Shown: positions 24,474 to 55,453 of the stretch, in pieces
Position numbering within the stretch: position 1 is the first letter of the stretch
How the letters are laid out: each line of letters begins with the position of its first letter
Origin: a virus
DNA length: 64,000 bases
Direction: 5' to 3' (one strand)
Virus record (IMG/VR): IMGVR_UViG_3300042893_001103
Span: 1-64,000 of that record
The notes under the pieces: model-generated
Told to the model about the DNA's origin: nothing
The model's database searches: none
What the model saw: only the letters and a program-made list of their open reading frames with translations
Position numbers and translations under genes: made by a program

Positions 24474-24474
24474 C

Positions 24475-32784: not shown

Positions 32785-35700
32785 ATGAGTCAGCAAGATA
32801 TTCAATTTAAAGCCATTCCAGGCCAATTCAACATTGACGAGGCCCAAGGCGTCGTTGAGTGTTTCGTCGCCGGCATCGGCAATAAGGACTCAGTAGGAGA
32901 CGTTCTAATTACTGGAGCATTCACCAAAAGCCTTACCCGCCGCAAGCCCCGTGTTGTTTGGGGACACAACTGGAACGACCCAATCGGTAAAGTTCTTGAG
33001 ATTTACGAAGTTGCCCCAGGGGACAGAAGACTTCCAACAAAGATGCTCAACGCCGGTATTGGTGGCTTGTACGCAAAGGTTCAATTCAATCTCAACTCAG
33101 AAAAAGGTCGGGAAGCCTTCGCCAACGTCGCGTTCTTCGGACAAGAACAAGAGTGGTCAATCGGATACAAAACGCTTGATTCAATTTTTGACCCGAACAT
33201 CCAAGCAAACATTCTAAAAGAAGTTGAACTTTACGAAGTATCGCCAGTACTACATGGTGCCAATCAATTGACTGGAACAATTTCTGTAAAGTCTGACGAA
33301 ACAGCCGAAAAGCACATGCCCGGAATGATGATGCCTCACCATACTGGAATGAACCAAGGTCCAAAAATTATCGTCGTTAGACAGGGTGATGATGACGACG
33401 ATGACGACGACAAACCAATTTTCTCAGAGGGTCTTGCTCGGGCGCTTGGTGACAATGAAAAAGAAAGATTGACACGCGAACTACAAAGCAGAAGCGGTTC
33501 CTCAATTCAACTAGTTTCCGCTACTGAAAGCACGGCAAAGTTCAGAAGAATGACCTCTGATGGTCGTTCTGTAATGTACAGAATCGGATATCACACTCCA
33601 GACAATTACGTTACCTTTATGTTTGGCAAGCCTGAACTGGCAGACGGACAACAACCGAGTGGTTCACGTACGGTTGTTCCGTCACAGATGCCTTCAATGC
33701 CAATGCAGGTCAAGCCTGGCGTGCCAACTGGCGCAACGAACTTCGTTGTTAGTCCTGAATACGTAATGCCTAAAGGTGAGGATTATGAAAAATCAGCCTT
33801 TGACGAAGAACTAGAAAATCTTGCTCAGATTCTTGACGAGACATTTGATGTAAAAGTTGGAAGAACGCTTAGTTCCCGCAATATGTCAAAACTAAAAACA
33901 GTCCTAGAGACACTTCAAGACATTGTTTCATCAGCGGAAAAAGATGTTGAATCAAAAAGTGATTACCTAATTCCTGTCAAACTGGAAAACGCGTTTGAGA
34001 CCAAGCAATTACTTGACCCAATTTTTGATTATCACAGGGTTGAATCTCACGTGACGGAAGATGGCATTGTCATCACAACCGAAGTAACACAAGAATTTAT
34101 AGAGGCTATTGGCGTAGCCGAAAAAGCCCTGGGGCGAACGCTAAGCGGGGGCCTGGGAAAATTAGGCCGCGCCGGTAGGGGCGCGGTAAACTTTGACCCA
34201 AAAGCATGGGACGGTGACGGAGACGGAATCGTACAAGAAGGAACGCCGTACTCACGTCCTGCAATTCCTGGAGTAAACGACCGTGCATCTGGTGGAAGAG
34301 TTGACACCAATGCTGCAACCCGCGCATGGCAAAATCAACGCAGAAGCGGAATGGCTTCCCGTATGGGTAGCGATGACAACGCAGATGAATACGACGAAGC
34401 AATGGGACCACCAATGCGACGCCCAAGCAGAGGTATGGCTGACGACCCAGTTGGTGACGCTGCTTCAGAAAACCTTGATAGAGACAGAAACGCTGGCGCT
34501 GTAAGAAGTGGACTTAGTTCAAGCACTGCAGGTGTTGTCAAAATTGATATTCCTCAAATTGACAATGCCATAGAAGAATTGGCAGCCAAAGACATAGGAA
34601 TGTCTCTTAAAAGATTCAGAGAACTAACAGACGAGGGTCGTCTTCCGGAACGTTATCAAAAAGCATTTTCGGACAGAGTTAAAGTTCTTAATGATATTTT
34701 TTCTAATTTAAGCAAAGAAAAACTAGACGAAAGTCCTGGAAAAGTGCTTTCAGAAATTAGAAAAAAATTAGTTGACACTCTTTCTTCTGACGACAAAGAA
34801 GGCGACGGTTTCATTAGCCAATTTAACGATAGAAGAGAAATACAAAACTTTATAGACGGAATTGAAGAAGTTCTTAACTTGGCTTTTGACGACTATGTTG
34901 ACAGGGCTAGAGAAAATGGAACAGGCGAAGAAGCGGACGACCTTCAGGCCGAGTTGTTGTCTGACTTCACACAATCTTTAAAAAAAATATCCGAAAAATC
35001 AAAGAACCTTTTTGATGCAAGAACAAAATCCTTCCGTGGAACAGAACCAGCAAAAGCCAAAAAGGAATCAGAATCAGAAAAAGAAAGATTATTTGACTTG
35101 CTCAAAAATCTTCTTGACATGGAAGAACTTGCTAGGTACCTAGACAGCACAGAGGGCGTTGTTCCTACGGATGCATTTATTGACAGAATCAGAAAGGGAA
35201 ACATAAGTGACGAAGACCTAGTACAACTAAATGGCTTTTTTGAAGATGCACTAGAAAATATTATTACCCTTGACCCAAGCCTTGACCCAGAAAAATTAGC
35301 AAAAGAATTTTCTGATGCAATTAGAGAAGGTGCAAAAAATGATGAATCAGGAGTAATTCAGCGTATTGCAAAAGAACTGGGTGACGATGGCGTCAGTGAG
35401 GACCTCGTTCAATACCTCAAGGATGGTAGAGAAGGTTCTCCATTCCTTCCGAATAGAGGTAAAAAGGAAAGAGAAATACTTCGCGGCTTTGCTTCCAGAA
35501 CCGGCGGTGGTGACTCAAAAGGTAAAAAATTTGATGTTAGGGATAGAAAACAAAGAGAAGACAAAATCGTTGAAATGTACAACGACGGTGAAACTGTTGG
35601 CGACATATCTCGCTTTTTAAGTTCCCAGCCTGGTTCAAATGGTATTTTTACGGAACTTGCTAACATTCGCAATGTTATAGATAAAAGAAGAAAAGCGGGA

Positions 35701-38700
35701 GACGTTCCTCTTCGTTCCGTCAATCCAAACAAGGAAAGACAAGCAACAACTAACCTACGTAATGAAATCATTAGACTTTATAACGATAATGATGAATTGT
35801 CGTATCGTGAAATAGCAAAACTTACTGGTACAACCCAAGCCAATGTTACAAACACCCTTTCTTCAATGCGTAGAGGAAATGATTCTCGCATTAGAAGCGG
35901 GGACAAAGTAAGAGGCTTTTCGTCTTCTACCGGTAGTGATGGAGAGAGTGGACTTGGTTCCTCATCTGACAAGCGCGAAATGGACATGACGCTTGCTGAA
36001 TATGCAGAACTAAATGAAGTTCTTAAAAAATATATGGATGAAAGCCAACTAGACGGCATCGGTGCCGACGAAGACATGCAAGTCATCCAGAACATTCTGG
36101 ACAAACTTGATGAGAGTTCAGCCGCAAACGACTCAATCCCTCTTACGGATAAAGAAATTGACGACTACATGGACACTCTCACAAGAATGAGAGACAATGG
36201 TCCGGTTGAAGATTCAGACGATAAAGAATCAATAGATAAATTGATTGACTCTTTGAAGAAAACAAAAGACTCAAAAGATGGAACCTACGAATCAGATGCT
36301 CTTCAGCAGGCTGGAACCAGGCTTTCCCGTCCTTCTCGTGATGGACAAGGTGGCGGTCGTGGAAGAACAGCAAAACGCCCTCGCGGCTTTAAGAGTTCCA
36401 ATGGAACAATAAACCCACACAAAAAACTTGATATAGAACTAGATGATTCTGAAATCGGCGAACTTCGTGACGAACTTCAGGGTTTTATGAAAATGACAGA
36501 CAACCCTGCTCCGCTCAGGGCCATTGCTGAAAAACTTGAAAAAGCCACAAACGGCAAATTTTCAGTTGATAAAGACGAATACGAAGCAGTCATAAAAGAA
36601 ATAGACAAAATGCGAACCGACAGAGGAGTGGTCACGTCTGATGTGGTTGGGGTTCTTGAGCAAGCAGCAGAATCTCAAAAAGGAAAATACTCCAGTATTG
36701 ATGTTCGTGGTGGACGAGGCTTTGAATCATCTACTGGTGGTGGCAAAAACAACGGAGCACCATCCGACATTCCTGAGACAATGCAAAAGCAACTCATCAT
36801 GTGGGGTAGACAGCAGGGCGGACTCAGACTTGTCCAAGAAGCAATTCAGAGGTTTGACAAAGACAAGGGAACAATGCCGGCGTCGTACTGGAAGAGATTG
36901 CGCACCATGTATGAAAACATGGGGCCAGGTTCCGCTAGTGGTGCTGCTCGCAGAACTGGACGTAGGGGCATATTCGGTCGCGGAAAAGATACAGACACTT
37001 CACCACGTGGTAGTGCTGGATTTATAATTGACGACAGACCAGTACCTAAAGGCTTGCTTGATAACACAATGTCAAACAACCCGATTGTTACAGATGACTT
37101 CGTAGACACCAATTCTGGCCCCATGGGTGGCTCACAGGGTGGCGGCGTATTCAAGGACCCCAAGACTGGTAAGGAATATTACATCAAGCCGCCAAAGTCA
37201 CAAACTCATGCAGAAAACGAATCACTAATGTCTCGTTTCTATGAAAGATTAGGTATTCCTGCTGGAAAAGTAAAAGTAGGAACCTACAAAGGTCGTCCAA
37301 AAATTGTTAGCGAAATGGTTCCAGGGGCAAAACAGGTTGACCATGAATCCGAAATAAAGAACTCAGCATGGAAGAAGGCAGTTCAAGACACTTTTGTGGC
37401 TAATGCATGGCTTGCAAACTGGGACGCTGTTTCAAACTCGGGAAACACCATTAAGGGCGGAGACGGTAAAGCGTACGTCATTGATGTTGGTGGTGCTGGT
37501 CTTTTCCGAGCAAGAGGAGAAGCAAAGGGCTCGGCGTTCGGTCCTATCGTCGGGGAAATGGAATCCTTGAGAGACCCAAATCAGTCGGGCGCTAGACGTG
37601 GTGTTGCATACTGGGGAGACATTCCTCCAGCAGAAATTGCTCGTCAGGTAAAAGCAATTGGAGCAGTATCAGATTCTGAAATCAAAGAAATGGTTGATGC
37701 TGTAATTTCCGACAAAGGTGAAGCAAAGAAACTTTCTGACACCCTTATTGCGCGACGTGACTATCTGGTACAAAACTGGTCCACTGGCAAAAATAGTGGA
37801 ACTGGCAGAAGAGGTCGTACTGGCTTTTCTTCGGAAACCGATAATTACGAAAGAAGAAACAAGAGGCCTGGCGTAGCGCCAGCAATGAGACCTGCCGACT
37901 TTGAAGTACGTCCTCGTGACGGCGAGCCTACGGGTGTTGGCAAGGGTGGAGTAATGGGAACAAAGCCCGACCCCAAGTTCACTGGAGACTCTTTTGACCA
38001 AGCCAAACCAGAAGAATGGGAAAAACTTACAATTGATGAAAAATGGGGTTGGATGCTTGGGGAAGGAAACCCTGAAAAGGGTGGAACGATGTCCCCTGCC
38101 GCCTATCAGGGTGCAATGAGGAAACTTGGCGAAGAAGAAGCCAGGGAAGAAACAAAGCGCATGACTCCAGAAGAACGAAGAAAATCCCGTTCAGAATCAA
38201 GACAAAGCGCCATGGATGAACGTTCTGACAACGAGAAAGAAAGACTCACTTCCGAAAGAGAAGAGCGTCAAAAAGAAGCACAAGAATCATCTAAGCGAGT
38301 TAAGGAAGAAGCAACTGCGGAGCAAGCGAAAGCCAAGAGACAGGCGCGTCTTGATGCTTTCAATGAATGGATTGATGACTCAATTCGTGAACTTTCAGGA
38401 ATGGAATACGACGAAACAGACATCAATCCTGATTCTGAAGACATCTGGGACACTGTTTCCACAATCCTTGGCGTTGAAGACATCACTCCAAAGTCGCTAA
38501 AAGAAGCAATTGACGAACTTTCATCATATATTGACATTACTTCAGGAGAAAATGCTTACGAAAAGAAGAGTGTCGCTCGTGCTAACGCACTATTGAAGAA
38601 ACTCTTAAAGATGCAATCAGAGTATTCGGAAGACAAGTGGTTTAACGACAGAGAGGGTGGAGTGTCTGGATTCCAGTCTTCAACTGGCGACAAACCTCGC

Positions 38701-39309
38701 CCTCCAAGAGACGGTAGACCGGCACGTCCTGGAACACCAGAAACGCCTCAATCAAATGCCAAACGCGAAGGGGAAATTAAAAAACTATCTACGCTGATTG
38801 AGCAGGTTGTTGCAGAACTTGATGAAAAACGTCAAAACCCTTCACCAAAAAAGGGAAGAATGGGATTCTCCTCATCAACCGGCAAAACGATGATTACTGA
38901 CGAAGCAACCTTTTTTAAGGACATTGAGAATTCTCTTGCAAAAGAGATTAGAGCCGCGCAAAAGGCTAGAAACACTAAAGCAGCATCAGGATTAACAAAA
39001 CTTCAAGAGATTATAAAAAGAAGTGAAGCCTCAAAAACAGGCGACAGAAGAACAAACGTCGGAAGTATCTACATGACGATGGATGAAGTTGACTTAATTC
39101 TTGACGGTCTTCAATTTGCCCTTGACCAACAGGTACAGGCTGGTGGAGATAAAAGAATTGGCTGGTACTCAAGACTAATTGAAAAAGTTGCCGGCGCAGC
39201 CATGTCTACATTTATTGATAAAAGTACATCAGAAATTGGTTCAACAAGAAGAACAGTCACAAACAAAGACGGCGTGAAGAAAAAAATCAATATTGTCCCA
39301 GAAGCATAA
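32785..39309 (+). CDS. Giant modular protein: HK97-type prohead protease followed by HTH, helical repeat modules and a HipA/PI-kinase-like domain
   Basis: N-terminal DSVGDVLITGAF, WGHNW..PIG, EWSIGY, LYEVSPVLHGAN; kinase-like GGSQGGG..YYIK..AENE..NWD..GN..VIDVGG; AGGAG RBS. Confidence 0.85.
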   Translation: MSQQDIQFKAIPGQFNIDEAQGVVECFVAGIGNKDSVGDVLITGAFTKSLTRRKPRVVWGHNWNDPIGKVLEIYEVAPGDRRLPTKMLNAGIGGLYAKVQFNLNSEKGREAFANVAFFGQEQEWSIGYKTLDSIFDPNIQANILKEVELYEVSPVLHGANQLTGTISVKSDETAEKHMPGMMMPHHTGMNQGPKIIVVRQGDDDDDDDDKPIFSEGLARALGDNEKERLTRELQSRSGSSIQLVSATESTAKFRRMTSDGRSVMYRIGYHTPDNYVTFMFGKPELADGQQPSGSRTVVPSQMPSMPMQVKPGVPTGATNFVVSPEYVMPKGEDYEKSAFDEELENLAQILDETFDVKVGRTLSSRNMSKLKTVLETLQDIVSSAEKDVESKSDYLIPVKLENAFETKQLLDPIFDYHRVESHVTEDGIVITTEVTQEFIEAIGVAEKALGRTLSGGLGKLGRAGRGAVNFDPKAWDGDGDGIVQEGTPYSRPAIPGVNDRASGGRVDTNAATRAWQNQRRSGMASRMGSDDNADEYDEAMGPPMRRPSRGMADDPVGDAASENLDRDRNAGAVRSGLSSSTAGVVKIDIPQIDNAIEELAAKDIGMSLKRFRELTDEGRLPERYQKAFSDRVKVLNDIFSNLSKEKLDESPGKVLSEIRKKLVDTLSSDDKEGDGFISQFNDRREIQNFIDGIEEVLNLAFDDYVDRARENGTGEEADDLQAELLSDFTQSLKKISEKSKNLFDARTKSFRGTEPAKAKKESESEKERLFDLLKNLLDMEELARYLDSTEGVVPTDAFIDRIRKGNISDEDLVQLNGFFEDALENIITLDPSLDPEKLAKEFSDAIREGAKNDESGVIQRIAKELGDDGVSEDLVQYLKDGREGSPFLPNRGKKEREILRGFASRTGGGDSKGKKFDVRDRKQREDKIVEMYNDGETVGDISRFLSSQPGSNGIFTELANIRNVIDKRRKAGDVPLRSVNPNKERQATTNLRNEIIRLYNDNDELSYREIAKLTGTTQANVTNTLSSMRRGNDSRIRSGDKVRGFSSSTGSDGESGLGSSSDKREMDMTLAEYAELNEVLKKYMDESQLDGIGADEDMQVIQNILDKLDESSAANDSIPLTDKEIDDYMDTLTRMRDNGPVEDSDDKESIDKLIDSLKKTKDSKDGTYESDALQQAGTRLSRPSRDGQGGGRGRTAKRPRGFKSSNGTINPHKKLDIELDDSEIGELRDELQGFMKMTDNPAPLRAIAEKLEKATNGKFSVDKDEYEAVIKEIDKMRTDRGVVTSDVVGVLEQAAESQKGKYSSIDVRGGRGFESSTGGGKNNGAPSDIPETMQKQLIMWGRQQGGLRLVQEAIQRFDKDKGTMPASYWKRLRTMYENMGPGSASGAARRTGRRGIFGRGKDTDTSPRGSAGFIIDDRPVPKGLLDNTMSNNPIVTDDFVDTNSGPMGGSQGGGVFKDPKTGKEYYIKPPKSQTHAENESLMSRFYERLGIPAGKVKVGTYKGRPKIVSEMVPGAKQVDHESEIKNSAWKKAVQDTFVANAWLANWDAVSNSGNTIKGGDGKAYVIDVGGAGLFRARGEAKGSAFGPIVGEMESLRDPNQSGARRGVAYWGDIPPAEIARQVKAIGAVSDSEIKEMVDAVISDKGEAKKLSDTLIARRDYLVQNWSTGKNSGTGRRGRTGFSSETDNYERRNKRPGVAPAMRPADFEVRPRDGEPTGVGKGGVMGTKPDPKFTGDSFDQAKPEEWEKLTIDEKWGWMLGEGNPEKGGTMSPAAYQGAMRKLGEEEAREETKRMTPEERRKSRSESRQSAMDERSDNEKERLTSEREERQKEAQESSKRVKEEATAEQAKAKRQARLDAFNEWIDDSIRELSGMEYDETDINPDSEDIWDTVSTILGVEDITPKSLKEAIDELSSYIDITSGENAYEKKSVARANALLKKLLKMQSEYSEDKWFNDREGGVSGFQSSTGDKPRPPRDGRPARPGTPETPQSNAKREGEIKKLSTLIEQVVAELDEKRQNPSPKKGRMGFSSSTGKTMITDEATFFKDIENSLAKEIRAAQKARNTKAASGLTKLQEIIKRSEASKTGDRRTNVGSIYMTMDEVDLILDGLQFALDQQVQAGGDKRIGWYSRLIEKVAGAAMSTFIDKSTSEIGSTRRTVTNKDGVKKKINIVPEA

Positions 39310-39418
39310 ATAGTATGCGTTCTCGCTCAGAGGCGCATGCTAAGTTATACTTTTATAAACTATTCATAATGTGATATTGACACTCGTGTCTTTACTCGCT
39401 AAAAAACAGGAGTTACCA

Positions 39419-40795
39419 ATGAGCGAAAAAGTTGAAGTCAGTGTTGATGCGGACGGCAATGTTCTTAAGTGTGCCAAGGGCGCAAATGTTGCCGACTGCG
39501 GGTTTACCCCAGGTGCAAAAGTGTGCGGTAAGTGCGGAGCAATGCCTATCCAGATGAAGATGGTTCCAGTCACCGATGATGACTATGAAGTCAAGGGTGG
39601 AGACAAATGGGACGATAGTGAAATGTTTGACGCTATGAAAAAGCGTCAAAAGGGCACGGGCATGGGAATGCCTGGCGAAGAAGATGATGACGAAGAGATG
39701 GATGACGAAGACGAGATGGCGTCAATGCCGTCATCCAAGAAGAAAATGTCTCTTGAAATTGAAGAAGACGACGAAGAAGAATACGACGAAGACGACGAAG
39801 AAGAAGACGACGAAGACGCCGAGATGAAAATGTACGACGGAGAAGTTGACCTAGAAGCAGCAAGAAAGAAACGTCTTGCCAACATGGGTGAAAAAGTCGC
39901 AGAACTTGGAAGAAACGCATACATGTGTGCTGTTGAAAGAAAAGTTTACCCAGGTGGTTCAGGCGTCTGTGACGATTGTCCTGGTGGATGCTTGCCAGAG
40001 CGCGGAATGCCAGGTCTTCTTTCTGTTGAAGGAATTGCCGAAGAAATGTTTAAGGGCAAGGTTCTTGACTCTGGATATTCTTCAGATGCAGACATGTTCG
40101 TGGTTGACATTCAATCAAAGAGCGGCCGTGCGGTTGAAGTCTTTATTGATGGTACAACTGCAGAAGTTCTCGGTTTCCACAAACTTGATGACAATGCCTT
40201 TGAGCAGAAGTCAGCACTTGATTCAATGATGGTAATTGACTTCCACGAAGCAGCAGAGATTGCAGTTAAGTCCATTCAGGGTGACGTTGTTGCTGTTGAG
40301 CCAGACATCTTTGAAGGCTTTGATGCATACGCAGTTGAAATTGAAGGAATTGACGGAAAGTCTTACGACGTATTCGTTTCACTTGACGGTGAAGTTCTTG
40401 GATACGACAAGTATGAGCCAGAAGAAGCAGAAGCCATTGAAGCAGAAGCCGCAGAGATTGCATTAAAGCGTGCATTCAATGAAGACATGCGCACACAAAT
40501 GGCAGAAGAAGGAAAAGCACTTCCAGACGGTTCCTTTCCTATTTCTAACGTAGAAGACCTCAAGAACGCAATCAGCGCATACGGTCGTGCAAAAGACAAA
40601 GAAGCAGCAAAGAATCACATTATGAAGCAAGCCAAGGCTATGGGTCAGGAAAAACTTATCCCCGCCAACTGGGTAACCGGTGGAGCAAAACTTGTTGAAG
40701 AAAAATCCGGAGAAGTTGACTCTGACCTTATGGCATCGCTTGTTGAGTTTGAACTCCTTGAGGCCGAGGTCAAAGACTCAGAACCAACAATCTAG
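39419..40795 (+). CDS. Head-associated protein with Cys clusters, acidic tract, two PepSY-like domains and a DUF6582-like domain
   Basis: IDFHEAAEIAVKSIQGDVVAVE...YAVEIEG..GKSYDVFVSLDGEVLG; ALPDGSFPI..VEDLKNAISAYGRAK; AGGAG before ATG 39419. Confidence 0.65.
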   Translation: MSEKVEVSVDADGNVLKCAKGANVADCGFTPGAKVCGKCGAMPIQMKMVPVTDDDYEVKGGDKWDDSEMFDAMKKRQKGTGMGMPGEEDDDEEMDDEDEMASMPSSKKKMSLEIEEDDEEEYDEDDEEEDDEDAEMKMYDGEVDLEAARKKRLANMGEKVAELGRNAYMCAVERKVYPGGSGVCDDCPGGCLPERGMPGLLSVEGIAEEMFKGKVLDSGYSSDADMFVVDIQSKSGRAVEVFIDGTTAEVLGFHKLDDNAFEQKSALDSMMVIDFHEAAEIAVKSIQGDVVAVEPDIFEGFDAYAVEIEGIDGKSYDVFVSLDGEVLGYDKYEPEEAEAIEAEAAEIALKRAFNEDMRTQMAEEGKALPDGSFPISNVEDLKNAISAYGRAKDKEAAKNHIMKQAKAMGQEKLIPANWVTGGAKLVEEKSGEVDSDLMASLVEFELLEAEVKDSEPTI

Positions 40796-40811
40796 AGAAA
40801 GCGTGGCCCGT

Positions 40812-43800
40812 ATGACGGGGGTGGACATTAATAAAATTCGCCATTACGCGCCTGGATTCAATAATAGAACAACGCGTCTTGATGCGGATATGTCTGCATT
40901 GCTTTTCAAGGCCGGAACAAGGATTATTTCATCATCGGAAAGATTAATAGCCGACGTCTCTATTAAGGCAGCAATGGGAGCGGGTGCTCCTGCCGAAGAT
41001 AAAAAAAGAGGACTTCAAAGCGCTGGAAAATCCAAGTACATAAACATCAATGGTCTTGTCTATGACCCAGAAGCCAAAAAACAAGAGGGCCAATTCTTTA
41101 AGCCGTGGGTTACGGAAAGAGAAAGAATTAACGCAATGCGCTCAAACGACCCAGTTCCCAACTGGGGATGGGTTGACAGGAATCCGGAGAATCAAAATAG
41201 ACTCCAAGAGCCAAAAAACGCAAAAGGCAAAGTAACAAGGTATCCAGTAAACCCCAAAACTGGTGAACCAATGAAAAATTACGGAGTTGAACAAGAGTTT
41301 AAATCTCTTGGACCAACGCTTGCTGAAAGAAATCCTGGCGGAAAACTTCTTGCACGAACAGCAAAGTCTTTCGGTGTGGTAGTTGATGCTCTTGGAAAAT
41401 TTAGATGCCCTCCTGGGACGCCAGCAGCAAACAGATTTACTAACTTCAGAGGTGAAGGATGTTTTGACATTTCAGTAGCCCAGGTACGTAACTTGATTGG
41501 TTCTCTAACTCAATCAATGCAGGCACCACAGAGCGGGTCTCAAACAATATCCTCCCTTACTTCTGCAGGGGTAAGTATCGCCGAAATTAGAAAATCATTT
41601 AAAGAAAATGGAATTGCTGGCCTTGCCAGTCTTGCAAAGCGGGTTGGAATTGCTCATGTCGGTGATAAATGGAACGACATGTCTTACGTATCGCAAATAG
41701 CGGTAAGACTTAGAGAAGTTTCTGGCTTGACAATGGGTGCGCAGTCAAGAATGGAAAAAATTGCTCAGAAAAAAGCAGACACAATTAATTTTCTTGCTGA
41801 ATATTATGGAATAACAGAACCCAATGAATATAAAAAAATTGCACAAATAATTGAAAAAATGTCTGCTGACCCAGACTCTCCATTGGACCCAAATCAATTT
41901 AAACTTTTGTTTAGAGGTGGCTCTTTAGAAAGCCACGAAGAATGGGCCGTAGAAGCAATTATTAAAACACACATTGGGGCAATTGGCAGCAAACTTGGTA
42001 TTGATGCAACTGATGCACTGGAAGCATACGAAGAAGCCAAGCGTAACGGAGAAATAACTCCGCTTACCCGATTTGTTGATGCCGCTTTAGATAGAGAAAG
42101 AGATTTTAGGCTTGGAGCATTTGAAGACATGCTTGTTGCTGCGTACGAGCAACCACACACATTCACATTGCCCGGAGGCAAGAAAAGAATTTATACTGCT
42201 GGACCAATTCCAGACGGACCAGACGGAGAGAAATACAACGTTCCCCGATGGGACAGATACGACCTAAACGGATACGCGGAGCCAGAATTTATTTTAATTA
42301 ACTCTGGACCAGCAATTCTAGGATTTAGGGGAGGAGTTCCACCAAGTGGATATATGGACCTGTACGAAGCAACCGGAGGAGACATTGACGACCAGTGGAG
42401 AGCGGTTGCTTCAGAGATGGACAAAGACGAGCGTCTAAGGGCATATTCAGCACTGTGGAGTGTTGACCTGGCGGCAACAGAAGGAAGAGGTTGGAGAGAT
42501 TTTGGTGCACAAACATCTGCTCACGAAAGAGCCCACTGGGGTCAGATGGATGCAATTTTTCAATACCATGCAGAAACTAGTCCTGGTGTAGCCATGAAGG
42601 ATTTAAACAACCGTGAATTGATGGAATTAACTAACGAGTTCTTAACGAAAGCAACACCAGAGATATTACGAGATGTTTTTGGTGCCGATATTGAAGACTT
42701 GATTGATAAGCGTTTTGATGCACTTGCCGGTGCATACAGTCAAAAAGCACAGCAAGAGGCGCTTGAAGAACTAACAGGAGGAGGCAGCAGGGAAGACTTT
42801 AACTATTCTAGAAGCATTGCGCTACTAGAGACGCTCTCGGAATTAAAAGCAAACAAATCTGTCGGCCTCATAGGTGACGACCCCGAGTTGGATGCAATTC
42901 TTGACAAGATGACACCACTTCCTCCAATGTCTCCTGGTTCAATATCTCCATCTGGTGGAATCGTGCCATCACCCCCCGGTGGTTCACCAAGGCCAGTTAG
43001 GCCATCGCTGCCAAGTTCGGCACCATCGCTCCCTGCGAACGCCGGGAAGGTCGTTACCGTGATTCCAGGAAGAGGAAGCGGTCGTGGCGGTCGTGGCGCA
43101 CGAGGACCTGTTGACCCGTTTGAGCGAGACAGATATGGAAAAGTTCCGACAATGATTAAAGAGGGTCGTTTTACTCTTGAAGACATTGATGAGTTCTTGT
43201 ACGGAGAAGACGGCAAGGGTGGACTAAGGCAAACGCTTGCACAAATTGCAAACATGAAAACTAAAAAGAACGGCTATTCAGAGCCTGCTTTAGTTGAAAG
43301 AAAACGGCTACTTAATGAACTTATTAACACGATGGGTATTTCGTTTCCTGAACTTGAAGCAATAGCGCTTAAAGCAAAGAGAGGAGAAGCATTAACCCCA
43401 GAAGAAAAATCAAAACTTGTTAATGCTGTTTCACATTTAAGAAATGGTGCAAATGAGTTTAAGGCCAAATCTGTTGAAGCAAGAAAAAAATTTGAAGACT
43501 ATCGGAGTGTTGATGTATCAAGGGCAACTGGTGACGGTTCTGAATATGACGACAAAGATACAAACAGCCTGAATCTTGAAAGAATACAAGCCGAAATTGA
43601 AATGTACGAATCACTCTTTCAAAGAGTTGGGCGCGGCATAGCGCCAGCAGTGCATGACATTCTTACAATTAGTGAAAATGGTCCATATCCTCCACGTCTA
43701 ACCGCAAGAAAACCAGGTCCTCAACCTCTGGTTGGAATAGAAATTGACGGCGCTGACGGGATTGCAATTAAACAAGCGTCAAAACTTAATCCTCAAGAAC

Positions 43801-46882: not shown

Positions 46883-47478
46883 ACAGCAGAGACATTAAGG
46901 CAGACCCCCTTGGTGGGATAATCCCGCAGGAACTGGTTACTGGAGACCTACTCAAAGGTCGCGGACCAAGAAGAGGAAATCTTGAGCGCCTTCTTCGCTA
47001 TTGGCGGCCAATCATGAAAAAACCAGGCGGCTTTAGGCGTTGCAAAGTCATCCTTGCCGACCATCCAGAGTTGTACCCGTTGAACAATATCTGTGCTTGG
47101 TTGCATCACGAAACTACTGGTCTTTGGCCAAACGAGGGATGTCATCACCCTGGCATGAAAAACTGCCGCAAGAAAATTAAAAAAGGAATAAACGGTACTC
47201 TTTTCTCTGACTCTCAATTTGATAACAGAGTAAGGAAACTTGCTGGAAATAGCAAGAAATCTTTACAACAAGAAACCGAACGATACGAAGACTCGGTAGT
47301 AACTAATGCCGACGAAAAACACTCAGTCTTGGTGATGCGTGACTTTTCTGAGATGGAACCAGATTTCTGTAAAACCATGTCCGACGATTCAAGTTGGGAA
47401 ATAGAAGGCGAAGACGAAATGGGGAATACCAAGTCCGTTCCCTACGATTCTGAACAGGATGACGACGTTGAGCAATAG
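46879..47478 (+). CDS. Head-associated protein with Cys/His motif
   Basis: LLRYW..PGGFRRC...CAWLHHETTGLWP motif resembles modules in actinophage head-maturation proteins. Confidence 0.6.
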   Translation: MNSRDIKADPLGGIIPQELVTGDLLKGRGPRRGNLERLLRYWRPIMKKPGGFRRCKVILADHPELYPLNNICAWLHHETTGLWPNEGCHHPGMKNCRKKIKKGINGTLFSDSQFDNRVRKLAGNSKKSLQQETERYEDSVVTNADEKHSVLVMRDFSEMEPDFCKTMSDDSSWEIEGEDEMGNTKSVPYDSEQDDDVEQ

Positions 47479-49465
47479 AGAAATAAATTTCGTCAAAAGA
47501 AGAATTACTCTTCTTTCCGTAAAAACGGTTCGTAAGGTAAATCCCGTAATAACCATGCGCTTAAACGGCCAACAAAACGTAATAGATTACAAGGCTTTAG
47601 CAAAGCGCTCCGGTCTGACACGCAAGTACAGTGTGAAGGTCGGAATACTTGGTACGCATTCTACAATTGGTCAAGGAGCGCAGGCCATCGGTTCGGCAGC
47701 CATTCCGGGCAACCTGAGCCCTCTACGAAGCCCTATCAGGTCTGGTGCGTGGGGTGCCCTAACTCCCGGAAAACCAAGAATCCCTGGCGGTACTGGTGGA
47801 GCAAATCGTGCTAGTCGTTGCCCAGAGGGGTATCAATACGGCGGTCGTTTTACCGACTCGCGTTTTTCCACATGTGGCGCAAAACTGTTTGACATACCTT
47901 CTGCTATTGGTGTGGCAATCGGAGCACTAAGAAGAATAGCCCGTGGCGCTAGAGCAATTGCAGGACAGTCAACCCCAATCACTGGCGAGACTCCACAAGA
48001 TTCAATAGTTGATTCAAGACGTCCCCAGATTCCGAGAGTCGGAAACCCCAACCCAGTAGCACGCGCGGCTGCAGCAAAAAACATTGTCTCTCAAATCGGG
48101 CAGTCTGATGCGGCTGTCGTAAGAATGGTCAGAAAAGACGGGTTTGCGTTAGAACCAGTAGTTCCAGCACAGGTACTAAGAGCGATTCCAGACAACAGAG
48201 ACATGGAAGGCGCTGATTACATATTGTCAGTTCAGGGCCTTCCTCAACTAGGCGGAGAAGAACTTGGACTCCTCTCAAATACTGGGGTAACAAAACTTAC
48301 GTACGTTCTTCCAGGAGGCTCAACGCTGTCCCTTGAAAAGAAGAGACAACTAACTGTTGGTGAAAGAAGAAAACTTGGACGCACGGTTAATGCTGCGTCA
48401 AAAATTGACATTACCAATGACCCAACTGCACGATTAAAAGAAGTGGTTGCTCAAACTGGTGACGGAATAGGTTATTCAGAAAATTTCATAAATGTAAAAA
48501 ACCCCAATGAAGTTGTTTCCGCAGGTGGGAAATCACTCCCACGATGGGCTGATGAATTGTTTGGTAAGGGCAGAAAAGCGAAGCCACTAGCCAATGCAGA
48601 AAGAGCAACAGACTCAAATAGCGCCGTAGGAAAAAACATAACAAGCGTTGACGCTGCAGTTGACCAAATAATGTCTGGAAGACCACTTTCGGAAATTGAC
48701 CCAATGATTTTACAGCAAGCACTTACAAAGGCAAACGTATTCAAGAGACAAAAATTGGACCAAAGAAGAGAATTGCTTGAAACGCCTAATGGCAATAAGT
48801 ACATGCTCTATTCCTCGTCTGGAAAATATGAGCACCTTGGTCAAAAACTTGCAAGCGATATCCAGCAGCATCTTGGTCTTGAGTCGCCAGACGTTTTCTT
48901 TGTCGGTGAAGGAGATAAGAGAAAATACATAGTTGAGGATGCCTCTTCTCTAATTAGAGGATTTCAGGTTGACCGCAGGCGCAAATTCTCTGACTACAAA
49001 CCAGAAGATGTGGCAAAAATGCTTGTATCCGACTGGCTCACAGACCAGAGAGACAGAGACCCTGGTTCTATAGTTCCAGTTTCAAATGGAACAGACACGA
49101 AACCGGTTGTTACCAATAACTTCACTTCCGGACTTGCGGACCTTGATGAAGTGTCAATTGTTGAGCGTCAAAAACTGACCTTCTCTCAATTCATGGATGT
49201 AAAAAGAACTGAAACATACTCACAGTATTTTCAAAACCTGCAGCAACAGCAAAGATTTGCCTTCAGAAGAGAGATTGACGCTCTACTATTAAGAGCAAGA
49301 CAATTTAACTTTACACAATTCAAAAATCGCCTTTACAGTGATGGTCGCTTAACTGATGCTGAAAAAGCCCACCTAAATATTATTGGGCGTATTTTAGAAA
49401 CAAGAATTCAAAACTACGCAGGTAGTAGGGAAAATTTAATGGAAATCCTCGGAGTCAAAAAATGA
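47459..49465 (+). CDS. Polyvalent protein with degenerate JAB-like and HipA-like pseudokinase domains
   Basis: RCPEGYQYGGRFT; KLASDIQQHLGLESP; DWLTDQRDRDPGSI. Confidence 0.6.
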   Translation: MTTLSNREINFVKRRITLLSVKTVRKVNPVITMRLNGQQNVIDYKALAKRSGLTRKYSVKVGILGTHSTIGQGAQAIGSAAIPGNLSPLRSPIRSGAWGALTPGKPRIPGGTGGANRASRCPEGYQYGGRFTDSRFSTCGAKLFDIPSAIGVAIGALRRIARGARAIAGQSTPITGETPQDSIVDSRRPQIPRVGNPNPVARAAAAKNIVSQIGQSDAAVVRMVRKDGFALEPVVPAQVLRAIPDNRDMEGADYILSVQGLPQLGGEELGLLSNTGVTKLTYVLPGGSTLSLEKKRQLTVGERRKLGRTVNAASKIDITNDPTARLKEVVAQTGDGIGYSENFINVKNPNEVVSAGGKSLPRWADELFGKGRKAKPLANAERATDSNSAVGKNITSVDAAVDQIMSGRPLSEIDPMILQQALTKANVFKRQKLDQRRELLETPNGNKYMLYSSSGKYEHLGQKLASDIQQHLGLESPDVFFVGEGDKRKYIVEDASSLIRGFQVDRRRKFSDYKPEDVAKMLVSDWLTDQRDRDPGSIVPVSNGTDTKPVVTNNFTSGLADLDEVSIVERQKLTFSQFMDVKRTETYSQYFQNLQQQQRFAFRREIDALLLRARQFNFTQFKNRLYSDGRLTDAEKAHLNIIGRILETRIQNYAGSRENLMEILGVKK

Positions 49466-52400
49466 AAAAAGTATCTACCCTATTTGATGCGTTGCGTAAT
49501 GAAAAGTTTGCTATTGCTGTTCAGGACGACTATGGAGTTAAATACTACGGCTCTGAAGGTCAAGCAAGAGAATGGGCGGACTGGGCAAACTCTTTTAATA
49601 CCAAGACACTTGACACAAATAATCTTCCAGCAGGAATTATTCAGGGTCCATATAAAAACGTTAGTGAGCATTCTCTCAAGTCCTTACTGAATGCTTTTGG
49701 TAACAACGTTACGGAAATTAACAACTCTTTCACCGACTCTAAGGCGTACTCATATAAAAGTTCCATGAAGATGGATAATGGCGCTCGCGTTCCAGCAGTA
49801 ATGGACACACCAATTGGGCACTTTACTAAATCCCAATACGCAAGCGCAGTAAATTACAAAGGTCTAGTTATTCGTACTCAAATCAAAGAAGGAAGTTTTC
49901 TTTTTGAGGCAAAAGTAAATAATTATGCATTTAACTTTGAAAACTGGATGTACAACTCAACTCCTTCAAAAGCGGAGATTAAATCCCTTCGCAACAGAAT
50001 TGATACAAACGTAGGTCGTTCTTCGGAAAGACGTTTAGGAATGAAACTGAAGGCCGCCCTCGTTGAAAGAGACGGACGCTACAGAATTGGGTATGCACAA
50101 ACCCTAGAAACCAAGTCGCTTGAAGATTCTCTTGAGGTAAAAGGAATTGGCGAAAGAATAGGCGGAGGAGCACGCATCGGAAGAAGAGCGGCTCGTAGTA
50201 TGGCCATGTTTGACCCAAAGGCTTGGGACGGCGATGGTGACGGCGTAGTTCAAGAAGGTACTCCTTTTGAGAGACCAGCAATTCCTGGAGTCAACGACAA
50301 AACAACTGGTGGAGTTGTTGATGCAGATGCTGCAAAAAAGGCATGGAAAGAATCTCAGAAGACTCCAGGCAGTTCAACGCCTTCAAGAGAGTCAAGCCCT
50401 AGACGCAGGGTTTCCAACGCAGCAGGCTCAGCAGATAGACAAGTTTTTACTACTCGCACGCCAGCCGCAGCAGGTCGCAAAATACCTGACTCAAAGCCGA
50501 TAAGTAGAAGCGGTCTAGCGTCACGAACACAGGCTGATATTGATAAAGAAGTATCAAAGCAAGTCACAGACACGGCAAAAGAAGTTCTTACCAAGAAATC
50601 AACGTCCACCGATTTACGTTCACTGATTAGTGGCCTCGGTCCTGACGGAGCAACAGAACTAAGCAGAGACCAGCAAGACAGAATTAACGACATTATTGAT
50701 GCGTTTGATAATGACGAATATGAAAATAATGAAGATTTTATTTCGGAAATTGCAAATGTTTTGCAAAAAAAGATTCCCGTAAATCAAAAACCAAAACAAA
50801 CAGGCATGCGTTCACGTGTTGGTAAAGCACAAATGGATAGACAGGTTCAGGGTCTTGCGTCACGTAGTGGTCGTTCAAAAACAAAATCAAAACTTAAAGC
50901 AACACCAGGCCGTGATGCTGTTGACGAAAAAGATGGTTCCCTTTGGGCTTCACTTACTCCGGAACAACAGGATGTTGTAAAGAAAAACACACAAGCAGCG
51001 TACGACGGACTTCAGACATACATCAAGAAAGATAAATACCTAAGCACGTGGTGGAATGACTTTTTGAGTCTTAATCGCAAAAAGAAAGCAACTGACGCAG
51101 ACGGAAAACCCTGGTCCGACCAGTCAAGAATTTCTGGAGAAGCATTTACTTCTTTTGAAGTTGCGTTAAACGGTGCTCTTTCTGGTGAAAATTCAGACAT
51201 AGCGTCTGCAGAGTCTGGTCTTGCAGCAATGAGGGCCACTCTGTCCGATGCTGAAATCAAAAAAGCAGAAAATAGAATTGCAGCACAGAAAAAAAGAGTT
51301 GAAAGACTTCAAAAAGTCTTAGACGACCTTAGAACTTATGACCAAATGGATAAATCTGACGACTGGTCGCTTCTTGAGCACCTTCACCCAGAACAAAGAA
51401 AAAAGTCTTTTGGTCTTGGACTTAGCAAGAGTGAAGCCGACATGACGGTAAGTCCTTTTGCTGATGGAAAACTTCCAAAGGGAATGAAGGTTGGGGAGCC
51501 ATCAACCATCTTTGAAGAAGTTGGTGGAATGAAGAGAGCCGCTCCACGACTCATCGGAGAAAAAGGTGACGCAAAACTTGAAGACCTTGCAAACAGAATT
51601 CTTCGCCCGAATCCGCAAAGAGCAGCACGTCGCGCTGTTAGAAAACAGAAAAAGGCTGGTCGTTCAGGTTTCAGAATTGAACAAGAAGACAAACCTGATA
51701 TTACAAGCAAGATTAAAAAAAGAATTAAAAAAGCCAAACGAGCAGTCAAAAGAACCTTTGGAAAACAAAGAAACGAATCAAAAATTCTTAACGGAATCAG
51801 AAGAGAACAAACTGTTAGAATTTTTGAAAGAGACCCAGATGGAAAAATTGTTATTGGAAAAGAAACAATTCAACTACTTGACGAAGTCGTTAATAAGGCA
51901 CGCCAGAATAACGGTCGTGGAGAATTCAAGGGTCAAGCAGACGCAAACATGCTCCTTGGTTTCTTGTGGGAAAACAATGGCTTCAACAGACAGCCAGCCC
52001 GCTTATCGGAAGATGAAGCAATGGCTTTGATTGATGCTGGATGGCACCCAATCAAGAGAGGCGTTTCTGCTGAAGAATATGCGGATGAATATTTAACAGA
52101 ATCTCGCAGAAGAATTACTGGTTCCAACGGAGAAATGGAAGGACCTGGAGAATACTGGTCAAATGCTGTTTCAACAAACTGGGATGACCCAAGATATTGG
52201 GGTAAACCGACCGAAAGCAATGGATTGTTTGGATTTCTAAGTCCTGATTATAGGGTTGCTTCAAGAGTTGATAGAGAACGTATGGCTTCGGAATATCAAA
52301 AGTTTGCACAAGCATTTGAAAATGTAATTTCTGTAATGCCCAAAGGCGAAGCAGAAAAAATGGAACCCGCAGATTTCATGAGAGAACTACGTACCGCTCT

Positions 52401-52749
52401 TTCAAGGAACGTTGCAGACGGCGACCCAGTATGGGATGGCGAAGTTGGACAAATGTGGTCTTCGTTGATGAGTGCTTACGAATCATCCAGTGGACCAGAA
52501 AAAACACAACTATGGAATGTAATTAATTTTATGTCTACTCAACTTACAAGACAAACAAGATGGGAAAACTATGTTCCTTTAATTTTAGGCTACGATGGCA
52601 TTGATACCGGAGACAACACAGTAAGAACTGGTGGAACGGCCGCTGGAAAACAAGTCCTTATTTTCAATAGACAGGGCCTTGCTGTTCTTGACACGCCAAT
52701 AAGCATTAAGGGAATTAATGACATTCTTAAGGAAGCAGATAAAAAATGA
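49462..52749 (+). CDS. Polyvalent protein with C-terminal ADP-ribosyltransferase-like domain
   Basis: FDPKAWDGDGDG motif; NGFNRQP...IKRG...GEMEGPGEYW...LGYDGID...VLIFNR. Confidence 0.6.
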   Translation: MKKVSTLFDALRNEKFAIAVQDDYGVKYYGSEGQAREWADWANSFNTKTLDTNNLPAGIIQGPYKNVSEHSLKSLLNAFGNNVTEINNSFTDSKAYSYKSSMKMDNGARVPAVMDTPIGHFTKSQYASAVNYKGLVIRTQIKEGSFLFEAKVNNYAFNFENWMYNSTPSKAEIKSLRNRIDTNVGRSSERRLGMKLKAALVERDGRYRIGYAQTLETKSLEDSLEVKGIGERIGGGARIGRRAARSMAMFDPKAWDGDGDGVVQEGTPFERPAIPGVNDKTTGGVVDADAAKKAWKESQKTPGSSTPSRESSPRRRVSNAAGSADRQVFTTRTPAAAGRKIPDSKPISRSGLASRTQADIDKEVSKQVTDTAKEVLTKKSTSTDLRSLISGLGPDGATELSRDQQDRINDIIDAFDNDEYENNEDFISEIANVLQKKIPVNQKPKQTGMRSRVGKAQMDRQVQGLASRSGRSKTKSKLKATPGRDAVDEKDGSLWASLTPEQQDVVKKNTQAAYDGLQTYIKKDKYLSTWWNDFLSLNRKKKATDADGKPWSDQSRISGEAFTSFEVALNGALSGENSDIASAESGLAAMRATLSDAEIKKAENRIAAQKKRVERLQKVLDDLRTYDQMDKSDDWSLLEHLHPEQRKKSFGLGLSKSEADMTVSPFADGKLPKGMKVGEPSTIFEEVGGMKRAAPRLIGEKGDAKLEDLANRILRPNPQRAARRAVRKQKKAGRSGFRIEQEDKPDITSKIKKRIKKAKRAVKRTFGKQRNESKILNGIRREQTVRIFERDPDGKIVIGKETIQLLDEVVNKARQNNGRGEFKGQADANMLLGFLWENNGFNRQPARLSEDEAMALIDAGWHPIKRGVSAEEYADEYLTESRRRITGSNGEMEGPGEYWSNAVSTNWDDPRYWGKPTESNGLFGFLSPDYRVASRVDRERMASEYQKFAQAFENVISVMPKGEAEKMEPADFMRELRTALSRNVADGDPVWDGEVGQMWSSLMSAYESSSGPEKTQLWNVINFMSTQLTRQTRWENYVPLILGYDGIDTGDNTVRTGGTAAGKQVLIFNRQGLAVLDTPISIKGINDILKEADKK

Positions 52750-53075: not shown

Positions 53076-53077
53076 TT

Positions 53078-55453
53078 ATGGAAGATTCGCTTGTTGGTAA
53101 AATTGCTGCCGTTAGGCAAGCAGCGGACATGGGCTGCTTCGGCGCGCATCAAATTTCAAATGGCGATTGGCTTCCATGCTCATCAACTAAACAGTTTTTG
53201 ACAATTATGAACGGATTTGATGTCAAGTCAAGAATTTCTCTTGACGAGATGGAGAACTGGTCTTCAATAAGAAAGTCAAAAGGCAAAAAACGCAAGAAGC
53301 GTTGGGAAAAACTTCGCGAGAGAAGAATTCTAGGAATTGAATCACTTGACAACGGTGGTCTTGTTTCTCCAAGAAATTCAATGAATATGGTTAATGGTGG
53401 CACTAACCCCCCAATAACTTATGGTGCTTCAAATCCTTCAAGCATGTCTACGAAGAGCATTCAGCCAGCATTCATGCCCAGAGACAATGACCCTGACGTA
53501 TTTGTGGACATTGAATCAGCAAGAAAAAGAGCACAACAACTTGGATGCATCGGTATAAGTAGAAGAATGTCAAAAGGCGGCAAAACCGTATGGATGCCAT
53601 GTACCAACATTACCGACTACAACAATTTGACAGGAATGACTGCTCTTGGAAGAAATAATCTTCAGAAAAGAAATGAAAAAATAGTCAGAACCGTTATAAA
53701 AGAAAATCTTAAAAAGAAAAAAACAACGATTCAAGAAGATATATACGGCAAGGCTCTTGGCCCAAGAATACGAGGCATAGCCCGTGCGGCAATGTCTAGA
53801 TTTGACCCTGATGCTTTTGACGGAGACGAAGATGGAATTATCCAGGACGGAACAGCGTTTGAAAGACCCAACACTCCGAATGCTCGCATCCCCAAGACTG
53901 TAGATAGGGAAGTTTCTCCCTCCGAAGTTTCGGCAGTACGCAAGTGGATGAGTGCCATGACTTCTTCAGATATGGATTCCTTCCGAGGCGAACCGATTGA
54001 AGCATACGATGGTGTTCCTGGTTCAAGACGTGGCTTGGCATCTAGTGGGCCCGGTTTCATTATTGACCCCAAGGGTCCAAAACAAATGGGCGGAAGAATG
54101 GCACCAAAGCCATTGGCCATAACAGAACTAAGAAACCCAGAAGCCAGTCCGACCAATCCGTTTAGAAATCTTGGTGGAAGATTGATGAGCAAATTGATTA
54201 GAGGAATGGTAAAGCCCGAACACAGACGTAAGCAAGAGAGAACAACCTATCTAATTGGAGGCAATACTGGTTCCGGAAAAACCACCGTACTTGACGAACA
54301 CTTAATACCAAAAGGATTGGTTCCTTCACACGAAGAGGCTGCCCTTATTGACCCAGACTTTATTAAGAAAGGTCTTGTTGGATATGACGATGGACAAGGC
54401 GCTGGTCGTGTTCACAGAGAGTCTCAAGCATCAACCGACAAGACAATCAGGGATGCCGTTTTGGACGAACTGGACATGGTAATTACGGGTTCTGGGGCAT
54501 CAAGACAAATCCAACACATGCGTGAAGCGTCTGAGCGTGGTGAAAAAGTAGTGGGCCACTGGGTTCATGTTCCGCAACGAGAAGCATCTAGACGCATTAA
54601 GAAGAGAGTGGATGAGACCAACAGGTATATACCTGACAACACCGCCCACATGGCACAAAGCATTCCTAAGGTTATTTCAACAGGCTTTGAAGAAGACTTA
54701 CTAGACGAGTTCTATTTATGGGACAACGATGTTCCAGCAGGTTCACCACCAAAACTAATTGCAAAAAAATCCAAAGGAAAAGATTTTGAGATATTTGACC
54801 AGTCAAAATTTGAAGAATTTGCTGGAAGTAAAAAATGGGCAGACACGTGGGTGGAAACGTCAGAAGACAGAGACGTGTCAAGAAAAGGTTTTGAGTCCTC
54901 AAGTTACACAGGCAAAGAAGCCGCAGTTGCTTTAAGAGAGTCTGGTTTTGAAGTAATCATTGACAAAAATATAGAAGTTCGTCTTCCTGCAGGAAGTGAT
55001 GCAGAAAAATTCTTTATAGAACGAGTTCTACCATATATGCCAAACAAATTTGGAAGAACGAACACACACGCGTCACGACTTACCCTGCCAGGGATTCCAA
55101 TTGTTGAAGACGTACAAAAGTTGCTCGGGGTGAGTATTGATAAAAGAAAAATTGTTGACAAAAACTATCGTAAAAAATTTAAAATGCAACTCATGTCAAA
55201 CGACCTAGAAGTTTTAGCAGAACTTTTTGCTAAAGCCCCTATTGTTGGTCCAAACGGCGAATCAAGGTTTGGCGATATGTTGCTTACTAACGTTGGTGTT
55301 GAGTTTGATGAAACAGTAAAGCAAATTGCTAAAAAGGCTGGTTTTTTGGAAAAAGAAATTTCAATGTTGATAAGTGAAGGGTTCACGAAAGAAGATATTG
55401 AGAAAATGTCAAAAGAAGAAATACAAGAACTACTAGACGCGCTTCCGGAATGA
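53078..55453 (+). CDS. Polyvalent protein: two DUF3721-like Cys motifs plus a zeta-toxin-like P-loop kinase
   Basis: A..MGCFGAH..WLPC and A..LGCIG..WMPC; GGNTGSGKTT, IDPDFIK, VHRES, RIKKRVDETNRYIP, LWDND. Confidence 0.75.
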   Translation: MEDSLVGKIAAVRQAADMGCFGAHQISNGDWLPCSSTKQFLTIMNGFDVKSRISLDEMENWSSIRKSKGKKRKKRWEKLRERRILGIESLDNGGLVSPRNSMNMVNGGTNPPITYGASNPSSMSTKSIQPAFMPRDNDPDVFVDIESARKRAQQLGCIGISRRMSKGGKTVWMPCTNITDYNNLTGMTALGRNNLQKRNEKIVRTVIKENLKKKKTTIQEDIYGKALGPRIRGIARAAMSRFDPDAFDGDEDGIIQDGTAFERPNTPNARIPKTVDREVSPSEVSAVRKWMSAMTSSDMDSFRGEPIEAYDGVPGSRRGLASSGPGFIIDPKGPKQMGGRMAPKPLAITELRNPEASPTNPFRNLGGRLMSKLIRGMVKPEHRRKQERTTYLIGGNTGSGKTTVLDEHLIPKGLVPSHEEAALIDPDFIKKGLVGYDDGQGAGRVHRESQASTDKTIRDAVLDELDMVITGSGASRQIQHMREASERGEKVVGHWVHVPQREASRRIKKRVDETNRYIPDNTAHMAQSIPKVISTGFEEDLLDEFYLWDNDVPAGSPPKLIAKKSKGKDFEIFDQSKFEEFAGSKKWADTWVETSEDRDVSRKGFESSSYTGKEAAVALRESGFEVIIDKNIEVRLPAGSDAEKFFIERVLPYMPNKFGRTNTHASRLTLPGIPIVEDVQKLLGVSIDKRKIVDKNYRKKFKMQLMSNDLEVLAELFAKAPIVGPNGESRFGDMLLTNVGVEFDETVKQIAKKAGFLEKEISMLISEGFTKEDIEKMSKEEIQELLDALPE

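Follow-up and report, generated by a model that had tools for sequence, protein, structure and literature searches.

A lysine site and calcium-binding-type loop shared by large head-module proteins of an uncultivated myovirus, a candidate header for virion cargo

The stretch of DNA analysed here (the window) covers positions 1 to 64,000 of the virus record IMGVR_UViG_3300042893_001103, which is 72,189 bases long with an estimated completeness of 48%, and encodes the head module of an uncultivated myovirus. On the minus strand are tail genes of myovirus type (sheath, tube, baseplate, and fibres), recombination genes, and the large terminase gene. The plus strand carries the head module, which runs from the portal gene (30622-32676, +; PF04860, E 3.8e-48; phrog_2662) to the gene of an HK97-type major capsid protein (55593-56954, +; PF05065, E 8.9e-44), with the genes ordered portal, P0001, P0007, P0005, two small open reading frames (ORFs), P0006, P0002, one small ORF, P0003, and capsid. 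Three of the proteins encoded between portal and capsid, P0001, P0002, and P0003, share a short element, here called the tag, in which a lysine site and a basic linker precede a putative Ca2+-binding loop.

P0001 is a polyprotein of 2174 residues (32785-39309, +), with an N-terminal Peptidase_S78 prohead protease domain (residues 23-169, 32851-33291, +; PF04586, E 2.5e-11; phrog_80, E 1.9e-27) followed by ~270 residues, the first tag, and a series of modules joined by G-F-x-S-S-T-G. The tag (34117-34281, +) opens with AEK447↓ALG (K codon 34123-34125; the arrow marks a predicted cut), continues through a basic, Gly-rich linker (34126-34191), and ends with the Ca-loop core FDPKAWDGDGDGIVQEGTPYSRPAIPGVND (34192-34281). 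P0002, a predicted cargo protein of 1095 residues (49462-52749, +), consists of a conserved propeptide of ~226 residues, the second tag, and a C-terminal domain of no known family, with no Pfam or PHROG family matched by the protein. Its tag (50134-50298, +) runs from EVK227↓GIG (K codon 50140-50142) through a basic linker to the core FDPKAWDGDGDGVVQEGTPFERPAIPGVND (50209-50298). The third tagged protein, P0003 (791 residues; 53078-55453, +), also a predicted cargo protein, carries two DUF3721 units in its propeptide (PF12518, E 1.3e-11), the tag (53744-53869, +), formed by YGK225↓ALG (K codon 53750-53752), a short basic linker, and the core FDPDAFDGDEDGIIQDGTAFERP (53801-53869), and, C-terminal to the tag, a zeta-toxin-like P-loop kinase (residues 383-524, +; PF06414, E 2.1e-8). 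Both DUF3721 units sit in the part of P0003 that is predicted to be removed (53078-53750).

Running the strict pattern FDP.A.DGD.DG..Q.GT over the six-frame translation of the window returned exactly three matches, at 34192-34245 (P0001), 50209-50262 (P0002), and 53801-53854 (P0003), all of them in-frame and in long plus-strand ORFs, with 2e-12 matches expected by chance over the six frames. A looser pattern, DxDxDGxx[QCE][ED], was observed three times in the window and not at all in any of 100 nucleotide shuffles. These matches bear out an earlier note on this DNA, which had reported a shared leader in three proteins at AEK 34117, EVK 50134, and YGK 53744, as does the presence ahead of every copy of K-[AG]-[LI]-G (K447, K227, and K225) and a Gly/Arg-rich linker. 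The three DNA copies show many synonymous and third-codon differences, which argues that their likeness is held by selection at the protein level and does not stem from recent duplication or conversion.

A fourth copy lies beyond the window, at record positions 67592-67726. There the tag sits ~48 residues from the start of a frame that spans at least 1566 residues and is cut off by the contig end. The gene concerned (67490-72189 of the record) adjoins nucleotide-metabolism genes and has homologues of 3100 to 3700 residues, one of which holds a DEDD exonuclease and a ParB-like domain; searches of the fourth tagged gene against Pfam, PHROGs, and PDB sequences gave no function.

The anatomy of the element was examined with a profile built from 32 tag copies, comprising the four of this record and 28 from related contigs. 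Among 1.84 billion proteins, the profile matches 882 cluster representatives at E<=1e-3, of which 253 reach E<=1e-10, with the top 150 of the 882 representatives taken as the sample for anatomy; the strict core is present in 137 of these proteins, in 157 instances. In the 32-copy alignment the D, A, D, G, D, D, G, Q, R, and P of the core are invariant, and the K and G of K-x-L-G are conserved in at least 90% of copies. A site of the form K-[AGSQTN]-[LIV]-[GAL] lies no more than 45 residues upstream in 101 of the 157 instances, 44 instances fall within the first 60 residues of the ORF, and one or the other holds for 124, with the remaining instances mostly showing looser ExK↓[A/G] sites when inspected by eye. 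Alanine occupies P1′ at 59 of the 101 K sites, with serine and glycine at 20 each; P2′ holds leucine at 74 sites and isoleucine at 26, and 93 sites have glycine at P3′. Linker length ranges from 10 to 36 residues (median 20), and the net charge of the linker has a median of +4. A propeptide is missing from some tagged proteins, in which the tag lies 5 to 30 residues from the start codon. Two copies are present in 20 of the 137 proteins; in the examples inspected, one stands at the extreme N-terminus and the other after an internal K site.

Compared by BLASTP, the sequences that precede the K sites of P0001, P0002, P0003, P0005, and the capsid protein show no significant mutual similarity (all E>0.2), leaving the tag as the sole element common to the N-terminal regions of the cargo. 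Within the P0002 family, the propeptide is well conserved in an alignment.

The lysine site of the tag resembles the site at which the HK97 capsid protein is cut. Among PDB chains of HK97 gp5, the full-length protein reads ...FNK SLGSD... and the mature protein starts at SLG, from which the HK97 cut is K↓SLG (K103↓S104-L-G), the same pattern as at the tag lysine. The P1 to P3′ pattern K↓[S/A/G]-L-G is thus common to both systems, as are an S78 protease and an HK97-fold capsid protein, and by this analogy we infer that the tag lysine is a cleavage site of the S78 prohead protease. Were it cut as in HK97, the motif would stay at the mature N-terminus, unlike the capsid targeting sequence of phage T4, which is removed. 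The known protease substrates in HK97 are the capsid protein and the protease itself; unlike in HK97, a K-type site here heads several giant cargo proteins, to one of which the protease is fused. In 55 capsid proteins of the clade, S106, E108, K110, and L112 are invariant, giving EFK↓xL, and the candidate maturation site of the window capsid protein is EFK110↓TLLGG (K codon 55920-55922, +; 55 capsid proteins, 13-sequence alignment). An alternative capsid site, SLK91↓GLG, was rejected, with K91 not conserved among the 55 proteins. The stretch between K110 and a conserved R-V-R-D-L-F is ~55 residues longer than its counterpart in the HK97 N-arm.

The core of the tag has the form of a Ca2+-binding loop, with the consensus DGDGDGIVQE over the 157 instances; D36, D38, D40, and G41 are invariant in the 32 copies, and position 10 is E or D. 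Every Ca2+-ligand position is kept, in agreement with the earlier reading of DxDxDG as a Ca2+-loop pattern, and the loop would bind Ca2+ through these residues. The tag is similar to the Excalibur domain (PF05901, DxDxDGxxCE; CbpL, 5J8T), with which it has in common the loop P-x-A-x-D-G-D-x-D-G-x-V-[Q/C]-E-x-T and the same D, D, D, and E ligand positions. As described in the accessible part of the source, the Excalibur domain has two absolutely conserved cysteines that form a disulfide, and the solved domain binds Ca2+ and is unfolded without it (PMC5137146). The tag, in contrast, lacks both cysteines, with Q standing where Excalibur has C in 157 of 157 instances and no upstream cysteine present in the 32-copy alignment; it is viral and cytoplasmic, not bacterial and secreted, and always has FDP upstream and xTxxxRP downstream of the loop. 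In Pfam, the three window copies are unmatched by PF05901 even at E<=10, and the fourth copy scores 13.5 bits (E 0.096), below the gathering threshold of 22 bits. The search with the tag profile also retrieved a true Excalibur-repeat protein (P0020), and comparison of the profile with the eight repeats of that protein by hhalign gave a probability of 94.5% (E 8.3e-8, 26 columns). When the tag was folded alone with the 32 sequences, the core reached a predicted local distance difference test score (pLDDT) of 83-87 and the flanks stayed below 50. A model of the whole of P0002 (mean pLDDT 60.6) gave no Foldseek match at E<=0.001, with a 'cyanophage A4 pre-ejectosome' rejected as a structural relative of P0002 (E 1.2, not significant), and the ESM Atlas held no usable match for the tag region.

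The tag precedes a range of payloads. Fifteen of 53 tagged proteins hold a Zeta_toxin domain, with ADPrib_exo_Tox and Peptidase_S78 in three each, DUF7178 in two, DUF3626 in one, and a sigma-70 region 4 helix-turn-helix in one, while 29 match no family at all; DUF3721 is found in 12, at the start of the protein. Further tagged ORFs hold RelA_SpoT, a DEDD exonuclease, a ParB-like domain, or an ArdC-like anti-restriction domain. Two effector domains occur together in P0031, P0048, and P0079 (Zeta_toxin and ADPrib_exo_Tox), and a tagged ORF of 2740 residues (locus L072) combines an ArdC-like domain with an ATPase; the tagged proteins of the window have single Pfam effector domains only, Zeta_toxin in P0003 and S78 in P0001. 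These payloads recall the polyvalent proteins of Iyer et al. 2017 (PMC5512222), which, in the part of that paper available, are very large, multi-domain, and encoded in a late-gene setting, with zeta-toxin-like kinase, ADP-ribosyltransferase, RelA/SpoT, and ArdC-type domains, and for which packaging and injection are predicted. The same part of the paper describes virion-packaged polyvalent or MuF-fused effectors that carry these domain types, and neither mentions an FDP/DGDGDG header nor contains the word 'calcium'. The tagged genes of the window lie between portal and capsid, matching the late or virion-gene setting of polyvalent proteins. A Pfam scan found no MuF domain in the window cargo, and the tag may fill the virion-association role that MuF has elsewhere.

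Co-occurrence of the tag with head genes, proposed in the earlier note as a check on a packaging role, is frequent and incomplete. A scan of viral contigs yielded 140 related stretches, from which 78 loci were kept, often several per contig, and head-module homologues lie within 10 kb at 62 of these. In divergent lineages, a protease polyprotein encoded beside terminase and portal carries the tag (L091), as does an ORF flanked by neck and sheath genes (L090). Tagged frames number 4, 4, 2, 5, and 7 in five related, nearly complete genomes, each of which encodes an HK97-type capsid protein and an S78 protease, the latter within a frame of 1227 to 4433 residues.

An abundant clade of uncultivated myoviruses with HK97-like heads carries the tag. 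By capsid and terminase, the cultured phages closest to it are myoviruses of Gordonia and Brevibacterium (44-48% identity), and a tblastn search of 50,697 cultured phage records gave no match for tag 1, the tag of locus L079, or the whole of P0002 with the low-complexity filter on, a setting that could mask DGDGDG stretches. In Gordonia phage DalanDe, which has a giant protease of 1633 residues, no tag was found. Among one genome each of 185,579 prokaryote species, five loci matched, one of which (L089) was rejected as a thrombospondin-type-3-like repeat in a bacterial protein. The four true loci are all on contigs of metagenome-assembled genomes (MAGs), with head-module homologues on the contigs of L086 and L088, while L085 and L087 are on short ones (7.1 and 5.2 kb). 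The PHROG family phrog_7924, unannotated and made up of small proteins, matches 31 of the 32 tag copies, with a best E of 6.6e-6 over profile positions ~80-108 of 112. No description of the motif was found in a literature search whose coverage left subscription journals largely outside.

We propose that the tag forms a 'cargo header', a composite of ~45 to 70 residues. Its three components would be a prohead-protease site of the HK97 type, [E or hydrophobic]-x-K↓[A/S/G]-[L/I]-G, a linker that is basic and rich in glycine (10 to 36 residues), and a cysteine-less Excalibur-like Ca2+ loop, [F/Y]DPxAxDGDxDGxxQ[E/D]xTxxxRP. Its carriers would be large, multi-domain 'polyvalent' effectors that are built into the prohead, where the S78 protease, at the N-terminus of the largest tagged polyprotein, would cut after the lysine. 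The unrelated propeptides would be lost, and each mature cargo polypeptide would be left with the same N-terminus of basic linker and Ca loop. Because the header is the sole shared element, we take it as a common address for the incorporation or retention of differing payloads in the head until ejection, a reading in which our confidence is evenly balanced. Tags lie next to free or predicted new N-termini, in a head-module context, and on proteins with effector domains; encapsidation of the cargo, and its addressing by the header, are part of the proposal. The common packaging peptide suggested in the earlier note is retained in part: a leader under selection, a head-module setting from S78 protease to HK97-type capsid, and recurrence on differing payloads in related phages speak for it, whereas the tag lies past the likely cut, and hence would be retained, and is also present on proteins encoded outside the head module.

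Several further observations weigh against a common address. P0005, a head-module protein of 1931 residues (40680-46475, +), has the sites K↓SLG (K208) and K↓QLG (K1380), and P0006, of 668 residues (47459-49465, +), has K45↓ALA, both without the FDP tag; with K sites but a different motif in these two proteins, other routes into the head must exist. Besides the two-tag proteins described above, which modify the earlier reading, some copies are internal and a few C-terminal. At 16 of the 78 viral loci no head gene lies within 10 kb; the tagged proteins there are giant (3100 to 3450 residues) or of 770 to 1800 residues and are surrounded by replication and nucleotide-metabolism genes. One related genome, 91% complete, has a single clear tag, on a giant protein, and no match in the frame that holds the protease, and the tag is thus not obligatory for the protease polyprotein. 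Free Ca2+ is low in the bacterial cytoplasm, and given that Excalibur is unfolded without Ca2+, a folded, Ca-loaded tag during prohead assembly is doubtful. Structural comparisons add to these points: the tag region has a pLDDT below 50 in the whole-P0002 model, the tag model has no structural match in the PDB (Foldseek, VIA-align wide), and the tag profile matches no PDB sequence even at E<=10.

In the main rival explanation, the header has no role until maturation is complete and then serves as an ejection leader or a Ca2+ switch that is unfolded in the cytoplasm and folded in the extracellular virion. The propeptides would then recruit the cargo, and the header would hold the polypeptide on DNA, portal, or shell, or lead it through the tail. 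The position of the motif past the predicted cut, where it would be retained 10 to 36 residues from the new N-terminus, is as this explanation expects, as is the arrangement of the two-tag proteins, in which one tag heads each predicted cleavage product. The Ca2+-dependent folding reported for Excalibur also agrees with it, and the propeptide of the P0002 family is conserved well enough that it could carry a recruitment signal. The propeptides of differing cargo are unrelated, however, and some tagged proteins have none, so that something else must recruit these; we regard an action confined to the time after maturation as unlikely.

A second rival makes the motif an exosite for the S78 prohead protease, positioning the K↓xLG bond and having no addressing role. 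The tight coupling of the motif to the upstream K site, at the fairly constant spacing noted above (median 20 residues), would be explained in this way, and the protease itself is fused to a tagged polyprotein. Yet K↓xL sites occur in the capsid protein, P0005, and P0006, none of which carries the motif, 44 of the 157 motifs lie within 60 residues of the ORF start, several of them without a K site, and C-terminal copies occur, making an exosite improbable. That same coupling to the K site argues for a specific function, and so against a motif that is a generic Ca2+-stabilised spacer, or a recombination boundary for the exchange of effector cassettes, with no specific packaging role. Such a boundary would be comparable to the conserved motifs ahead of variable toxin domains in polymorphic toxins, and the tag does precede highly variable payloads, recurs several times per genome, and is kin to a widespread bacterial Ca-loop domain. 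The many synonymous differences among the three window copies disfavour a role at the DNA level, however, and the tag is restricted to one phage clade, with only four true loci in the 185,579 species genomes, all on MAG contigs. To a spacer or boundary we likewise assign little probability.

The cargo proteins contain further motifs. The pattern G-[FLM]-x-S-[SR]-[TS]-G, frequently preceded by R or K, lies between modules in P0001 (for example at residues 901, 1044, 1201, 1312, 1962, and 2027) and is also present in P0002, P0003, and P0005 (32785-55453), with 12 occurrences in the 6659 residues of five cargo proteins against 0.17 expected. In all three tagged proteins of the window, the G-[FLM]-x-S-[SR] sites lie only past the FDP motif, as the earlier note had stated for modules linked by G-x-x-S. 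The same is seen in 64 tag-bearing ORFs from related loci, in which none of 92 sites of the G-[FLM]-x-S-[SR]-[TS]-G pattern is upstream of the tag though 19% of the residues are, giving a P of about 3e-9 on the assumption of independent sites, which sites in related ORFs are not. The flavour of the pattern varies by lineage (GFxSST, GLASTS, GLRSST, GMRSRS, and GFASRT), which would fit recognition by a co-evolving factor and perhaps a second class of processing site. Shortly past their K sites, P0005 (~residue 243) and P0006 (~residue 121) share R-C-P-x-G-x(4-6)-RFT-x(5-6)-C, also found in a metagenomic protein that bears two FDP tags (P0065), and this motif may be a second kind of cargo header.

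Other genes of the window touch on the head more loosely. P0007 is a very acidic head-module protein of 474 residues (39371-40795), the C-terminal ~50 residues of which (DGSFPI...GRAKDKEAAK...) closely resemble the C-terminus of the 1633-residue DalanDe protease. P0007 may be a scaffold-like protein, encoded on its own here and joined to the protease in the Gordonia phage. Directly after the capsid gene lies a gene for an aspartyl/asparaginyl beta-hydroxylase (57025-57573, +; PF05118, E 1.5e-14). Modification of the Asp or Asn residues of the loop by this enzyme was rejected as a general link, with the family absent from all five related tag-bearing genomes, which makes it an accessory gene of this phage. 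On the minus strand, a PAPS-reductase-like gene between two ParB-like genes (22623-25266, -) may form a DNA-modification cassette with them.

Outside T4, P1, and the giant phages, there is little understanding of how HK97-like heads come to package particular large effectors, and the header is one short, sequence-defined candidate signal that is common to hundreds of differing payloads in an uncultivated clade. If sufficient, the tag could be used to load foreign proteins into HK97-type capsids, and searches for the header offer a simple route to virion-delivered effectors (kinases, ADP-ribosyltransferases, and anti-restriction domains) in metagenomes.

Among known packaging systems, the capsid targeting sequence of T4 (IPI-III and Alt) is likewise a short leader, common to unrelated payloads that are packed and injected, and lies beside a prohead-protease site, as the accessible part of the source describes (PMC9026906). 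It comprises the first ~10 residues, upstream of the cut, whereas the motif of the tag lies 10 to 36 residues downstream of the predicted cut; the two sequences are unrelated, the protease here is of the S78 family and not gp21, and the tag has an added Ca2+ loop. In giant phages of the SPN3US and phiKZ group, the prohead protease processes many head-internal ejection proteins, with another protease family and cleavage motif, and no shared retained header was found described in the portions of that literature at hand. In encapsulins, short cargo-loading peptides bind an HK97-fold shell protein at its inner face. Tentatively, and with considerable doubt, the header may be a portable, Ca2+-gated address label for HK97-like heads, disordered in the low-Ca cytoplasm, exposed by the prohead protease, folded on binding divalent cations in the virion, and both necessary and sufficient to load payloads of up to ~3400 residues and deliver them to the host. 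Such a label would do the work of the T4 targeting sequence and the encapsulin cargo-loading peptides while staying on the mature protein, and would be made from a cysteine-less Excalibur loop.

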